A stretch of DNA of 64,000 nucleotides from an uncultured Planctomycetaceae bacterium (GTDB lineage: Bacteria > Planctomycetota > Phycisphaerae > SM23-33). A program made the position numbers and the translations under genes. The notes under the pieces were generated by a model. That model did no database searches. It saw only the letters and a program-made list of their open reading frames with translations, and was not told the DNA's origin. Positions 44,428-48,269 of this stretch are shown here, one piece after another. Position 1 is the stretch's first letter, and each line of letters starts with the position of its first letter. The stretch is taken from NCBI GenBank assembly GCA_964417755.1, contig CAYQJH010000001.1, positions 1,921 to 65,920 of the forward strand, in the 5' to 3' direction.

Positions 44428-44456
44428 TTGACATTGCCTGGGGAAGTCCATATACA
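44428..44456 (+). promoter_or_regulatory. Sigma-70-type promoter candidate TTGACA-N17-TATACA for the ACP-DH-KS-KS cassette
   Basis: Perfect -35 hexamer with 17-nt spacer and a -10 that matches TATAAT at 4 of 6 positions. It lies 70 bp upstream of the ACP-like start. Confidence 0.4.
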
Positions 44457-44527
44457 TAGTTGCCCAACTTTTGCCTGACGGGGCCAAAGTGCGGACTTTG
44501 ACATTAACGGCTCTAAGGAGAGATTCA

Positions 44528-44914
44528 ATGCCGATGACGGAACCGGAAGTATTCGAGAAGGTCAAGGAAACGCTTGTGGACGCTCTGGGCGTGGACGATG
44601 AAGAAGTCACCGCCGAGGCGACGCTCACCGGCGACCTGGGCGCAGAGTCCATTGACTTTTTGGACATCGTCTTCAGGCTCGAGAAGACCTTCAACATCAA
44701 GATCCCCCGCGGAGAACTGTTCCCGGACAACATCCTGAACAATCCGGAATTCGTCCTGAACGGCAAGTTGACCGCAAGCGGCCTGGCACAGCTCAAGCAG
44801 CGGATGCCGCATGCCGACTTCACACAGTTCGAGCAGGATCCGGACATCAGTAAGATGGCTGAGCTGTTCAAGGTTCAGACCATTGTCAACTATATTAAAG
44901 GTAAAGTGGCGTAA
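44528..44914 (+). CDS. Atypical acyl carrier protein (128 aa) with ~45-aa C-terminal extension
   Basis: AAGGAG RBS at 44514-44519. LGAESIDFLDIVFRLEKTF has the ACP helix-II Ser in an ESID context. The tail (NPEFVLNGKLTASGLAQLKQRMPHADFTQFEQDPD...) is absent from canonical AcpP. Confidence 0.7.
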   Translation: MPMTEPEVFEKVKETLVDALGVDDEEVTAEATLTGDLGAESIDFLDIVFRLEKTFNIKIPRGELFPDNILNNPEFVLNGKLTASGLAQLKQRMPHADFTQFEQDPDISKMAELFKVQTIVNYIKGKVA

Positions 44915-44918
44915 CAAC

Positions 44919-44990
44919 GAAACGGCGTTAACTGGTTGACTGGTTAGTTGGTTAACCGGTTAACTGGTTGACTGATTAGCTGGTCATCGC
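44919..44990. repeat. Repeat family I copy (TTAACTGGTTGAC / GGTTAACCGGTTAAC units) inside the cassette, between the ACP and dehydratase genes
   Basis: ggcgttaactggttgactggttagttggttaaccggttaactggttgactgattagctgg. Related to the large palindrome at 53696-53875. Confidence 0.55.
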
Positions 44991-45007
44991 CCTCCCTGGG
45001 TTTCCAA

Positions 45008-45493: not shown

Positions 45494-46799
45494 CCGCCGC
45501 GTGGCCATCACGGGCCTGGGCGTCGTAACGCCGGCCGGCATCGGCATGGCGGCCCTGTGGCCGGCGCTGCTGAGCGGCCAGGGCAGCGTCAAGAACGTCA
45601 GCCTGTTCGATGCCGGGCAGTTCGCCTGCAACCTTGCGGGGCAGATCGACGACTTTTCCGCCCGCAACTACGTGCCCAAGGACTACCGCAAGGCCGTCAA
45701 GGTGATGGCCCGCGACATCGAGATAGCGGTCGCAGCCGCTGACCTGGCCTTTCGCGACAGCGGCATCGTCACGCGCGGCATCGACGCAACCAATACGACC
45801 ATCGAACCCAAGCGCCTCGGCTGCAATATCGGCGCGGGGCTGATTTGCAGCGATCTGGACGAACTCGGGGCAGCCGTGATGTCCTCCCTGGAGGACGGCA
45901 AGTTTTCGCTGAAACTCTGGGGCGGCGCGGGCATGAACAACCTCACGCCGCTGTGGCTGCTGAAGTACCTGCCCAATATGCTCTCCTGCCACGTGACGAT
46001 TATTCACGGGGCCGAGGGCCCGAGCAACTGCATCACCTGCGGCGACGCCTCCGGCTGCCTTGCCATCGGCGAGGCCGCCAGCTACATCACGCGCGGCACA
46101 GCCGACGTCGCCATCGCCGGCGGGGCCGAGAGCAAGCTCAACCCGATGGGCCTGCTGCGGCAAGGCATGCTCAAGCGCCTCTGCACTGGCAACGGCCTGG
46201 CGCCGGCGGAAATCTGCCGGCCATTCGATCAGCGGCATTGCGGCACGATCATCGGCGAGGGCGGCGGCCTGGTGATACTGGAAGAGCTCGAGCGGGCCAA
46301 GGCCCGCGGCGCGAGGATATACGCCGAACTGGTCGGTTTCGGCGCGGCGTGCGACCCAACAGGCATAGACGTGCTCAAGCCCAATGCCGGCGGCATGGAC
46401 CTGGCCGTTAAAAAGGCTATCCGCTCCGCCGGGATAGCCCCGGAAGAAGTTGGAATGATAGTTGCCCATGGCACGGCTGTTCCGGGCGAAGACGCCGCTG
46501 AGGTTTCCGCCTGGCAGCAGGCCCTCGGCAGCCATGCAGCCAAGACGCCGGCGGTTGCGCTGACCGGAGCGATGGGCTGTCTCTTTGCCGGCGCCGGAGG
46601 CGTGGCGACGGCCACCGCAGCCATGGCGCTGACTAACCAGGTCGTTCCGCCGACGGTGAACTTCACCCAGCCTGCCAGCGATTGCAGGATGAACTTCAGC
46701 AACCAGGCCCGCAGCGCAAGCTTGGAACACGCCGTTATCGGCAGCTTCACAGTAGGCGGCCAGAGCAGCGCCTGTGTGCTGAAGCGTTATCATAATTGA
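45486..46799 (+). CDS. Ketosynthase-like protein lacking the catalytic residues (chain-length-factor / non-condensing KS partner)
   Basis: Its start ATG overlaps the dehydratase stop (ATGGCTGA). A gapless alignment to the KAS active-site block (GPxxxxxTACATxxHxIGDA) gives GPSNCITCGDASGCLAIGEA, so Cys becomes Asp. The second His motif GH becomes GC (LTGAMGCLFAGAGG) and the Lys is absent. HGT is retained. Confidence 0.7.
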   Translation: MADRRVAITGLGVVTPAGIGMAALWPALLSGQGSVKNVSLFDAGQFACNLAGQIDDFSARNYVPKDYRKAVKVMARDIEIAVAAADLAFRDSGIVTRGIDATNTTIEPKRLGCNIGAGLICSDLDELGAAVMSSLEDGKFSLKLWGGAGMNNLTPLWLLKYLPNMLSCHVTIIHGAEGPSNCITCGDASGCLAIGEAASYITRGTADVAIAGGAESKLNPMGLLRQGMLKRLCTGNGLAPAEICRPFDQRHCGTIIGEGGGLVILEELERAKARGARIYAELVGFGAACDPTGIDVLKPNAGGMDLAVKKAIRSAGIAPEEVGMIVAHGTAVPGEDAAEVSAWQQALGSHAAKTPAVALTGAMGCLFAGAGGVATATAAMALTNQVVPPTVNFTQPASDCRMNFSNQARSASLEHAVIGSFTVGGQSSACVLKRYHN

Positions 46800-46822
46800 C
46801 GTACGTGCCATGATGTCAGTCA

Positions 46823-46896
46823 GGAAGCCCCTGGCGGAAGCCAGGGGATGTTTCTTCCGCATGCAGCAAGCCCCCGGCTTCAAGCCGGGGGGATTA
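46823..46896. repeat. Repeat family C copy
   Basis: ggaagcccctggcggaagccaggggatgtttcttccgc..cccccggcttcaagccgggggg. Confidence 0.5.
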
Positions 46897-46925
46897 GGCC
46901 CAAAGGGCCGTTGCCGTTTCGTCTC

Positions 46926-46985
46926 TTTCGTGCGTTTCGTGTAATTCGTGGACTGCATTTTGTTGTTGCTGCTACTTCGTGGACT
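46926..46985. promoter_or_regulatory. Family G motif (TTTCGTGCGTTTCGTGTAATTCGTGGAC ... CTTCGTGGAC) immediately upstream of the second KS gene; candidate shared FAS-related cis element
   Basis: The same 26-nt motif forms the arms of the fabD-fabG palindrome (19449-19562). Confidence 0.4.
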
Positions 46986-48269
46986 ATGAAACGACGCGTC
47001 GTCATCACAGGAATGGGAACGGTCAATCCGCTTGGGCACGATGTCGAAAGCACGTGGGCAGCCATGCTCGCCTGCAAGAGCGGGATCAACCTCAACGATA
47101 TCTTCGATGCCTCGACGTACCCCACCAAGTTCTGCGCGTCGGTGAAGAACTACGACTTCGCCTCGCAGGTCGCCAATGCCAAGAAGCATGAGCATGCCGG
47201 CCGGCATTGCCGCTTCGCACTTGGCGCGGCCGTGCAGGCCTGGAAGCAGAGCGGCCTGGGCGGCTGCAGCCAGCTCGACCCGGCCCAGTTGGGCGTCTAT
47301 CTCGGCAGCGGCGAGGGCAGCCTGGACTTCGACAACTTCACCTCGACGCTGGTAGATTCCTGGTCCGACGGCAAGGTCGATACGGCCAAGTGGGCCCTTC
47401 TCGCCCAGCAGCGGATGGAGCTTTACCGCGAGGTCGAGCAGGAATCGAACATGGTGATGGCCCACCTGGCTGCGGAGTTTGGCGCTCGGGGCCCAGCCTT
47501 CAACGTGCTGACCGCCTGCGCCGCCAGCACGCAGGCCATCGGCGAGGCGGCGCTGCAGGTCCGTAGCGGCTCGGTCGATGCCGTCATCACCGGCGGAGCT
47601 CACAGCATGATCCACCCCTACGGCGTGACGGGCTTCAACCGCCTGACCGCGCTTAGCCAGCGCAACGACGAATATGCCACCGCCAGCCGGCCATTCGATA
47701 TGACCCGCGACGGCTTTGTGCTGGGCGAAGGGGCGAGCATTTTGATCCTGGAATCGTACGACCTCGCCAAGGCGCGCGGTGCGAAGATATTGGCTGAGAT
47801 CATCGGCTATGGCGCATCGGCGGATGCGTTCCGCATCACCGATCAGGACCCGGAGGGCGACGGCGCCGCAACGGCAATGCGCGCCGCACTGGCAGATGCC
47901 GGCCTGACGCCGCGGGACATCGGCTATATCAACGCACACGGTACGGGCACCAAGCAGAACGACCAGGTCGAGACGCGGGCGGTCAAGGCCGTGTTCAAGG
48001 ACCACGCCGCCAATGTGCCGATCTCCAGCATCAAGAGCATGGCCGGGCACCTCATTGCCGCCGCCGGCGCGACCGAATTGATCACCTGCATACTGGCACT
48101 TCGCGACCAGATGCTTCCGCCGACGACCAACCAGGTCAGCCCCGACCCCGACTGCGACCTGGACTACATCCCCAACAAGCCCCGCAAGGCCAGTTTCAAG
48201 TACGCAATGTCCAACAGCTTCGGCTTCGGCGGCCAGAACAACACGCTGATCATCACCGGCGGAAATTAG
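46986..48269 (+). CDS. 3-oxoacyl-ACP synthase (KAS I/II family, catalytically complete)
   Basis: MKRRVVITGMGTVNPLG; active-site TACAASTQAIGEA (Cys), NAHGTGT (His) and KSMAGHLIAAAGA (His/Lys). The upstream ORF extension is artefactual read-through of repeats. Confidence 0.85.
   Translation: MKRRVVITGMGTVNPLGHDVESTWAAMLACKSGINLNDIFDASTYPTKFCASVKNYDFASQVANAKKHEHAGRHCRFALGAAVQAWKQSGLGGCSQLDPAQLGVYLGSGEGSLDFDNFTSTLVDSWSDGKVDTAKWALLAQQRMELYREVEQESNMVMAHLAAEFGARGPAFNVLTACAASTQAIGEAALQVRSGSVDAVITGGAHSMIHPYGVTGFNRLTALSQRNDEYATASRPFDMTRDGFVLGEGASILILESYDLAKARGAKILAEIIGYGASADAFRITDQDPEGDGAATAMRAALADAGLTPRDIGYINAHGTGTKQNDQVETRAVKAVFKDHAANVPISSIKSMAGHLIAAAGATELITCILALRDQMLPPTTNQVSPDPDCDLDYIPNKPRKASFKYAMSNSFGFGGQNNTLIITGGN

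Follow-up and report, generated by a model that had tools for sequence, protein, structure and literature searches.

Why would a planctomycete with a complete housekeeping set of genes for fatty acid synthesis carry a second, isolated set, in which one of two tandem ketosynthases (KS) has lost its catalytic residues? The question is raised by a 64-kb stretch of contig CAYQJH010000001.1 (assembly GCA_964417755.1) from an uncultured Planctomycetaceae bacterium of the Phycisphaerae lineage SM23-33. This whole stretch is called the window below, and all coordinates refer to it unless another locus is named. Four plus-strand genes at 44528-48269 encode an acyl carrier protein (ACP), a 3-hydroxyacyl-ACP dehydratase (DH), the triad-less ketosynthase homologue KS1 and the intact ketosynthase KS2. 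The best explanation of our results is that this cassette is conserved across the sampled Phycisphaerae-type genomes and is not a secondary-metabolite cluster. With a probability of about 0.5, we read it as an auxiliary branch of fatty acid synthesis of type II (FAS-II), in which a heterodimer of KS2 and KS1 would make a non-standard acyl chain for an envelope lipid.

The first-pass annotation of this DNA had described a stand-alone second cassette separate from a complete fab operon, and both are real. The housekeeping operon is complete at 16354-22170 with plsX, fabH, fabD, fabG, acpP and fabF, and the relatives of the cassette show the same isolated arrangement. Mapped onto E. coli FabF by phmmer alignments to 4qav, 1j3n and 9lpl and by MAFFT against the E. 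coli protein, KS1 has Asp for Cys163, Thr for Lys335 and Cys for His340, with His303 kept. KS2 keeps Cys, His, Lys and His at the same four positions. The view that the first KS is catalytically dead and the second competent was therefore confirmed, including the loss of the Lys. KS1 is otherwise a full-length protein, with both the N and the C domain of the ketoacyl-synt family in its 437 aa.

The dead site is of ancient origin, and the replacement at position 163 is a property of the whole family. Of 120 database homologues of KS1, 108 have Asp at this position, 5 Glu, 5 Ala and 2 Ser, and among 43 KS1 copies from fetched loci it was Asp in 19, Glu in 18 and Gln in 1; Cys was found in neither set. 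The full triad was present in all 38 KS2 orthologues checked in these loci. A Cys nucleophile in KS1 after proper alignment, or a fabZ-fabF duplication in a standard FAS context in close relatives, had been named beforehand as what would speak against this annotation; neither was seen, and no KS1 relative has the Cys. In one KS1 subclade the four catalytic positions read Glu, Phe or Tyr, Lys and Asn. The two residue patterns suggest a buried charge pair, either Asp with His303 or Glu with Lys335, that may stabilise an unused pocket.

Profile scores place the cassette near ordinary fatty acid synthesis. Against TIGR03150 (cut-off 493.75 bits), KS2 scored 470.3 bits, a near miss with the triad intact, and KS1 308.8 bits with the triad lost. 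The scores for the NCBIfam models PRK07103 (polyketide KS), PRK09185 and PRK06147 were far below their cut-offs and no higher than those of the housekeeping FabF, and the KasA/KasB model gave 159-280 bits against a cut-off of 560, again no better than for the housekeeping FabF. The DH matched Pfam FabA (E 1e-13) and stayed below the FabZ cut-offs of TIGR01750 and NF000582 (76.9 and 82.1 bits versus 155 and 113), while keeping the catalytic His and Glu of the FabZ motif. Its best matches in the PDB were the anammox amxFabZ structures 8ayd, 8ayc and 7qv0. By these scores all four cassette proteins are diverged FAS-II types, namely of FabF, FabZ and AcpP. The affinity to type II polyketide synthases (PKS) and aryl polyenes (APE) that had been proposed for the cassette is thus one of architecture only.

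The carrier protein is unusual. It matched Pfam PP-binding with an E-value of 3e-11, and Ser41 of its ESID motif is the phosphopantetheine site, the Ser being invariant in 44 of 44 family members. All NCBIfam ACP models, TIGR00517 and PRK00982 among them, stayed below their cut-offs, the best scores being 63 versus 66 and 51.6 versus 70.45 bits. The protein differs from a housekeeping AcpP in its length of 128 aa (versus about 78) and its inserted subdomain, and retains the Ser. The elongated ACP and its ESID site had been recognised before; the extra length, which had been taken for a C-terminal tail, turned out to be an internal insertion of some 42-45 residues (about residues 60-105) between helix II and helices III and IV. 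With residues 64-105 removed, the ACP aligned end to end with E. coli AcpP at 39%, helix IV included. In an AlphaFold2 model (pLDDT 93.4), for which 44 family members were used, helices I and II are followed by a beta-hairpin with an extra helix and then by helices III and IV. Foldseek against the PDB matched only ACPs of 75-82 aa that cover the bundle and not the insert, with a TM score of 0.89 normalised to the target and 0.57 normalised to the query. The model thus predicts a canonical four-helix fold with a novel inserted subdomain. A MAFFT alignment that placed helix IV of E. coli AcpP at the start of the insertion was ruled out by the deletion and by the structure model.

How widely is this set of genes kept? 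Close database homologues of KS1 number in the thousands, and those with a named source come from Phycisphaerae or unclassified Planctomycetota. In a scan with one genome per species, at least 203 species genomes encode a KS1 relative. We fetched 80 of these 203 loci, and the flanks were analysed over 82 loci with tblastn anchoring and a filter on third-position G+C (GC3). The synteny was conserved: all 80 fetched loci have DH, KS1 and KS2 in one order, and most have the ACP and a second hotdog-fold gene about 1.5 kb upstream. Gene calls on two long contigs gave an ApeI-like hotdog, an ACP of 128-129 aa, a FabA-like DH and two KS genes, with unrelated housekeeping genes as neighbours. The upstream hotdog of the relatives matches the Pfam ApeI-like family, with 90.6 and 94.9 bits for the FabZ models, below their cut-offs. 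The usual cassette therefore has five genes, including an upstream ApeI-like hotdog that was not found anywhere in the 64-kb window.

KS1 and KS2 are adjacent wherever the contig runs past KS1, except in two loci without a full-length KS2 match. At the level of genes this is a pair of the type formed by a KS and a chain-length factor (CLF), with adjacent and co-occurring genes for a triad-bearing and a triad-less KS. The KS1 and KS2 subtrees are congruent, and each forms a clade with 100% support in a bootstrapped neighbour-joining (NJ) tree, which is a distance tree with few outgroups. The KS/CLF-like logic proposed earlier was supported by the adjacency, the congruent trees and the anammox analogue discussed below. 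That the two proteins form a physical heterodimer with a single active site may be inferred from these data by analogy. In line with the earlier description of an isolated core, no ketoreductase (KR), acyltransferase (AT) or MMPL exporter gene lies near the cassette in the window. Over the 82 loci no flanking family is present in more than 15, and no KR, AT, cyclase, adenylating enzyme, thioesterase, glycosyltransferase, LolA-like or MMPL gene is conserved near the cassette.

The sequences also speak for selection on the dead partner. Across the fetched relatives KS1 identity ranges from 45 to 92%, and the gene is intact and full length in all loci. The ratio of nonsynonymous to synonymous substitution rates (dN/dS) against three relatives was 0.13-0.26 for KS1, 0.06-0.15 for KS2, 0.08-0.12 for the DH and 0-0.17 for the ACP. 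Because the residue pattern of the dead site is kept and dN/dS is low, KS1 is not a pseudogene. The idea that KS1 is a functionless, decaying duplicate and the cassette a redundant fabZ-fabF copy can draw on the lost catalytic residues and on a KS1 that evolves about twice as fast as KS2. It is effectively refuted by the conservation just described, together with a replacement residue that is Asp or Glu in 113 of 120 database homologues and in 37 of 43 locus copies.

Relatives of the ACP reach beyond the Phycisphaerae-type loci. Among 1.8 billion cluster representatives, a threshold of E<=1e-30 gave 43 relatives and one of E<=1e-10 gave 758, and many of these span the insert. A relative in Thermoguttaceae (Planctomycetia) is encoded in a locus with the order hotdog-ACP-DH-KS and lpxK 6 kb downstream (positions 9355-19633 of locus L164). 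Its single KS is of the active KS2 type with 54% identity, and no dead KS was found in the 20 kb fetched. In another context lpxA, two Lip_A_acyltrans genes and lpxB lie next to a hotdog-ACP-DH trio, in convergent orientation to it (934-6574 of L166). A third context has an AMP-binding enzyme, two short-chain dehydrogenases/reductases (SDR), a phosphopantetheinyl transferase (PPTase, holo-ACP synthase) and both hotdogs (40-6192 of L168). All three contexts are on planctomycete-like contigs, and in two further loci the ACP stands alone. The contexts sampled are few; in them the unit that recurs seems to be hotdog-ACP-DH, often with KS2 attached, and KS1 was seen only in the Phycisphaerae-type loci. 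Similarly, a second database search with a distant KS1 (L056) gave no match named as Planctomycetia, the named hits being Phycisphaerae or unclassified Planctomycetota.

Based on these observations we propose the following for the auxiliary FAS-II branch. KS2 would be the condensing enzyme and the dead KS1 most likely its partner in a KS/CLF-like heterodimer, which would leave one active site with an acyl pocket shaped by the dead subunit. The growing chain would ride on the dedicated ACP, whose inserted subdomain probably limits the enzymes that can dock. Dehydration would be carried out by the FabZ-like DH of the cassette and, in relatives, also by the ApeI-like hotdog. For malonyl transfer the module would rely on the housekeeping FabD, and for ketoreduction and enoyl reduction on FabG and the enoyl reductase (ER) of the main pathway. 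The module would supply an envelope lipid, either lipid A or a membrane lipid, with an acyl chain that is not standard in its length or shape, and a specialisation in chain length is presumed. Only the KS, the DH and the carrier are duplicated. The acyl chain is enclosed by just two enzymes, KS and DH, and a non-standard chain is therefore the best explanation of such a set. Since the cassette is broadly conserved, also outside the class, is under strong purifying selection and lacks tailoring and export genes, we favour primary envelope-lipid metabolism over a polyene pigment. A link to envelope lipids is also suggested by the ACP relatives that lie beside lpxA, lipid A acyltransferase genes and lpxB, or 6 kb from lpxK. 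Residually bound (omega-1)-hydroxy fatty acids of C26-C32 are known from some planctomycetes (PMC3327967), which makes a specialised long-chain envelope lipid plausible, though unproven.

Several points weigh against this proposal. The Thermoguttaceae locus without KS1 may mean that the KS2 type also works alone, and the conserved Asp or Glu with the retained first His could reflect a residual or new activity of KS1 and not a purely structural role. Binding between KS1 and KS2 is putative, suggested by gene pairing and the anammox precedent. In the present genome a 186-nt spacer with a terminator-like hairpin parts KS1 from KS2. Neither the window nor the 82 Phycisphaerae loci have lipid A genes linked to the cassette, and the literature searched yielded no lipid data for Phycisphaerae. 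Additionally, the upstream hotdog of the relatives might simply be a housekeeping FabZ.

Among the other explanations, a priming or short-chain module is unlikely, and it would have KS2/KS1 mainly decarboxylate malonyl-ACP and make acetoacetyl-ACP on the special ACP, giving a separate FabH-independent pool, with short or medium chains up to about C8, on which other enzymes would draw. This is what the anammox heterodimer suggests, which made acetoacetyl-ACP, decarboxylated malonyl-amxACP and did not elongate hexanoyl-ACP (bioRxiv 10.64898/2026.05.19.726425), and amxFabZ prefers chains of C8 or shorter (PMC10139942). The closest solved relatives of the window DH are indeed amxFabZs, and in an uncertain alignment, compared with canonical FabZ sequences, the DH shares their non-basic residues at two ACP-contact positions. 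However, amxFabZ is defined by an Ile69 that plugs the tunnel, and the DH has Gly there. In addition, KS1 and KS2 are not orthologous to the two anammox KSs in the NJ tree, fabH is already present in the housekeeping operon, and in vitro limits of the anammox assay may account for the lack of elongation. We consider it somewhat less probable still that the cassette is a polyene or highly reducing type II PKS-like pathway, with KS2/KS1 as KS/CLF and enoyl reduction skipped to give a conjugated lipid of the aryl-polyene or xanthomonadin kind. APE and ishigamide-type systems have as their core a KS, a dead KS, an ACP and one or two dehydratases without a dedicated ER, the hotdog that relatives carry upstream falls into the Pfam ApeI-like family, and a distant locus of the ACP family has the AMP-binding enzyme, two SDRs and a PPTase. 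Yet KS1 is full length, while ApeC is half-size with a single thiolase domain (PMC8358021). The PRK07103, PRK09185 and PRK06147 scores do not exceed those of the housekeeping FabF, no accessory gene of APE type is conserved nearby in the 82 loci, and occurrence in at least 203 species genomes with low dN/dS is atypical of a pigment cluster. With an acidic residue and not Gln at the Cys position in addition, the polyene-type product that had been suggested is not favoured.

An oxygen-independent branch to unsaturated fatty acids, similar to FabA/FabB, is improbable. In it a hotdog would dehydrate and isomerise an intermediate of medium length and KS2 would elongate the cis-enoyl product. The combination of a dehydratase with a dedicated KS follows FabA-FabB logic, FabZ-type enzymes with Glu can isomerise in other bacteria (Enterococcus FabN), and two proteins encoded in the window, the hybrid-cluster protein (39066-40709) and an Fe-S protein, are anaerobic markers. 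But the known branches of this kind run on the housekeeping ACP, with no need for a carrier of their own or for a dead KS partner, the sequences give no indication of an isomerase, and the ACP family is also found beside lipid A genes and in other contexts. A broader form of the envelope-lipid proposal is tentative, though it deserves more weight than any of these alternatives. Here hotdog-ACP-DH, with or without KS and built around the ACP with its previously undescribed subdomain, would be the core of a lipid pathway spread over the Planctomycetota. A dead KS would have joined this core in the Phycisphaerae, separately from the event in anammox bacteria. Heterodimers of active and dead FabF would then have arisen repeatedly in the phylum, a new class of envelope lipid would be made, and the Asp or Glu would have a role of its own, for example in gating or charge pairing to set the chain length, or in a non-condensing activity.

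The positions of the cassette genes and of nearby elements are collected in the table.

Genes and sequence elements of the cassette, its surroundings and the housekeeping operon (window coordinates)
Feature	Position	Strand	Remarks
ACP gene, most likely call	44528-44914	+	128 aa, Pfam PP-binding
FabZ/FabA-fold 3-hydroxyacyl-ACP dehydratase (DH)	45008-45493	+	161 aa, Pfam FabA
KS1, triad-less FabF-derived homologue, proposed non-catalytic partner	45486-46799	+	437 aa
KS2, catalytically intact FabF-like ketosynthase	46986-48269	+	427 aa, Cys-His-Lys-His
Promoter-like TTGACA-N17-TATACA	44428-44456	+	Read directly in the sequence; weak evidence
Terminator-like hairpin with T-rich tail, closing the upstream unit (ECF sigma gene and 344-aa frame)	44329-44346	+	Consensus scan only
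8-bp tandem repeat GTTAACTG / GTTGACTG in the ACP-DH spacer	44927-44984		About 7 copies; TRF
Two G+C-rich hairpins in the KS1-KS2 spacer, the first terminator-like (T-rich tail)	46828-46893	+	
REP-like palindromic element GCGTGGTTGC...GCAAACCACGGCACC, upstream of the cassette	44144-44182	+	
REP-like element, second copy, downstream of the cassette	48845-48886	+	
Housekeeping acpP	20648-20893		81 aa
Housekeeping fabF	20917-22170		TIGR03150 593.9 bits, above the cut-off of 493.75

The ACP gene is preceded by a Shine-Dalgarno sequence, AAGGAGAG at 44515-44522, which ends 5 nt before its ATG. KS1 is coupled to the DH gene as noted earlier: its start lies inside the DH stop, in an 8-bp overlap (ATGGCTGA). 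KS2 probably starts at 46986 (MKRRVVITG) and not at the start of the open reading frame (ORF) at 46848, because the resulting N-terminal extension of 46 aa is not common to the relatives. The own promoter that had been claimed for the cassette stands as a string of letters; it is only a consensus match that the consensus scan did not call, position 6 of its -10 hexamer being A, and planctomycete promoters are uncharacterised. The repeat reported between the ACP and DH genes is present as an 8-bp tandem repeat, and its motif occurs again at 53697-53855; octamers of the form GGTTRACT occupy 44927-44984 and 53697-53870. The KS1-KS2 spacer (46797-46990) folds better than shuffled controls (z = -3.2), and it might uncouple or attenuate KS2 expression. 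In most relatives the gap between the two genes is about 0-60 nt or the genes overlap; the gap is also long in the 92%-identical relative L163, which has the same downstream layout as the window.

Other repeats are frequent in the window. The 15-mer core of the element resembling repetitive extragenic palindromes (REP) is present in 6 copies versus 0.29 expected, all intergenic, and copies are listed at 7143-7229, 44144-44182, 48845-48886 and 51264-51299. The two direct copies that bracket the cassette might be connected with its having become separated from the hotdog gene that lies upstream in relatives. Short tandem repeats occupy many intergenic regions, such as ATTTCAG x12 with a 19-mer array between fabG and acpP (20337-20627), AATGACGAA-type repeats upstream of the extracytoplasmic function (ECF) sigma gene (42161-42303) and an array with a 49-bp period near 10.7 kb (10678-10905). 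A search of the window against Rfam gave no match. Antisense to KS1 and KS2, a 967-aa ORF on the minus strand (45462-48365) is a stop-free frame of the kind expected in coding DNA of 60-65% G+C, without independent support.

In the window the hotdog position of the relatives is occupied by an ECF sigma-70 gene that overlaps a 344-aa ORF without a Pfam match (42451-44092), and we take the latter to be possibly an anti-sigma or DUF1559-like protein. The minus strand at 39066-42073 encodes a hybrid-cluster protein (Prismane family, 547 aa, 39066-40709) and a 4Fe-4S protein, which suggest an anaerobic or microaerobic lifestyle. Downstream of the cassette lies a gene of the dienelactone hydrolase family on the opposite strand (48978-49802). 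An SDR at 51556-52419, considered as the missing ketoreductase, was ruled out as a D-mannonate oxidoreductase (366 bits versus a cut-off of 281). A polysaccharide or O-antigen-type run at 56602-63930 holds GDP-mannose 4,6-dehydratase, NAD-dependent epimerase/dehydratase, UDP-GlcNAc 2-epimerase, a flippase-like protein, a GT2 glycosyltransferase and an unassigned 480-aa ORF. Among the relatives, a membrane-anchored alpha/beta hydrolase of about 360 aa follows KS2 in 15 of the 82 loci. A protein of about 555 aa, provisionally read as GH3-like, is encoded about 4 kb downstream in 10 loci. Both genes may be subclade-specific accessories.

The putative ladderane cluster of anammox bacteria has been described as unique to them, and its heterodimer of FabF and dead FabF was characterised only in 2026 (bioRxiv 10.64898/2026.05.19.726425). 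Our results add an analogous ACP-DH-KS(dead)-KS(active) cassette, seemingly of independent origin, that hundreds of species of the sister class Phycisphaerae carry, and a carrier type with an internal subdomain of about 42 aa that extends to Planctomycetia. They offer a comparative handle on the role of dead KS partners in FAS-II-like systems and point to an unassigned lipid pathway, probably connected with the envelope, in a phylum of whose lipids little is known. For genome mining they advise against taking such cassettes as markers of ladderanes or polyenes. No new principle is revealed; what we describe is an unusual carrier protein on a known kind of system, and the known systems can now be compared with it.

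The anammox Cluster I core (KustE3603-3606) consists of amxACP, amxFabZ, amxFabF2 and amxFabFmut (PDB 9s5h; bioRxiv 10.64898/2026.05.19.726425; PMC10139942). AmxFabF2 and amxFabFmut co-purify as a KS/CLF-like heterodimer that decarboxylates malonyl-amxACP (bioRxiv 10.64898/2026.05.19.726425), and amxFabZ acts on amxACP only (PMC10139942). The cassette is from the same phylum and likewise combines a dedicated ACP, a FabZ-type DH and two FabF-derived KSs, one of them triad-less, in a core without KR and ER genes. Divergence from the FabF model is also similar (472 and 329 bits for the anammox pair versus 470 and 309). We fetched Scalindua-like copies of Cluster I from metagenomes; one (9491-15811 of L083) encodes, in order, amxACP (89 aa), amxFabZ, an active KS, a dead KS with Cys replaced by Thr, a desaturase homologue and a B12 radical-SAM enzyme. 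Thus the active KS precedes the dead one in anammox bacteria, whereas the dead KS comes first in the cassette. The dead site is Val or Thr in the former and Asp or Glu in the KS1 family, the signature Ile69 of amxFabZ is Gly in the window DH, and the 89-aa amxACP lacks the insertion of the 128-aa cassette ACP. The phytoene-desaturase-like and B12 radical-SAM genes of the anammox cluster are absent from the window and from the 82 related loci. The NJ tree joins amxFabF2 with amxFabFmut as sisters (85% bootstrap) and sets them apart from the KS1 and KS2 clades. Moderate support for a dead KS partner that arose independently of the anammox one comes from the tree, from the gene order and from the lack of radical-SAM and desaturase genes. 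Orthology with the anammox cluster, which the PDB matches to amxFabZ had suggested, was rejected on the same grounds and by Ile69.

The aryl-polyene system is built on ApeO and ApeC, the latter roughly half as large as a KS and with a single thiolase domain, together with the carriers ApeE/F and the dehydratases ApeI/P (PMC8358021). It resembles the cassette in its active KS with a non-catalytic partner, its dedicated ACPs and its two hotdogs, the second of which the cassette has in relatives. Unlike ApeC, KS1 is full length, and the KR, adenylating enzyme, transferase, LolA-like and MMPL genes of APE clusters are absent. Similarly, the KS-alpha/CLF pairs of type II PKS (actinorhodin 1tqy; ishigamide Iga11/Iga12 6kxd) have a catalytic KS adjacent to a triad-less homologue and a dedicated ACP. 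Unlike aromatic CLFs with Gln at the Cys position, KS1 has Asp or Glu there, with Gln in 1 of 43, and no cyclase, aromatase or KR genes accompany it. The PDB matches of the cassette KSs to the actinorhodin KS/CLF were much weaker than those to FabF.

Mycobacterial FAS-II, with AcpM-KasA-KasB and HadABC, has an enlarged ACP and KR and ER encoded elsewhere, and elongates chains beyond the normal length. The cassette shares with it the enlarged dedicated ACP, the tandem KS paralogues, the paired hotdogs and the distant KR and ER genes. However, KasA and KasB are both catalytically active homodimers and the extension of AcpM is C-terminal, whereas KS1 is dead, the extra part of the cassette ACP is an internal insertion, and no specific sequence affinity connects the two systems. 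Within the Planctomycetota, Rattray et al. 2009 (PMC2649909) tabulate triad-less FabF paralogues of Rhodopirellula baltica, RB3714 with Asp163 and RB4527 with Glu163, without context or function. Compared through this published table only, they have an acidic residue for Cys as in KS1 in another class of the phylum, and the Glu-His-Lys-Asn of R. baltica resembles the Glu-Phe/Tyr-Lys-Asn of the second KS1 subclade.

The cassette ACP matched the AcpXL-type structure 2kw2 (E 2e-7) more weakly than housekeeping ACPs, and the cassette proteins scored far below the cut-offs of PRK06508, PRK06501 and PRK06519, which we take to be the rhizobial XL families. In the literature searched we found no statement on the catalytic Cys of rhizobial FabF2XL. 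Unlike the rhizobial cluster, neither the window nor the Phycisphaerae loci have a linked acyltransferase of lpxXL type or an alcohol dehydrogenase. Still, the rhizobial genes acpXL-fabZXL-fabF2XL-fabF1XL-(adhA2XL)-lpxXL, which make the very-long-chain acyl group of lipid A (PMC11901934, PMC5613085), have an ACP-DH-KS-KS order identical to that of the cassette. As in the cassette, a dedicated carrier, KS and DH are combined with borrowed FAS-II enzymes, the product of the XL module is an acyl chain of an envelope lipid, and one relative of the cassette ACP likewise adjoins lipid A acyltransferase genes.

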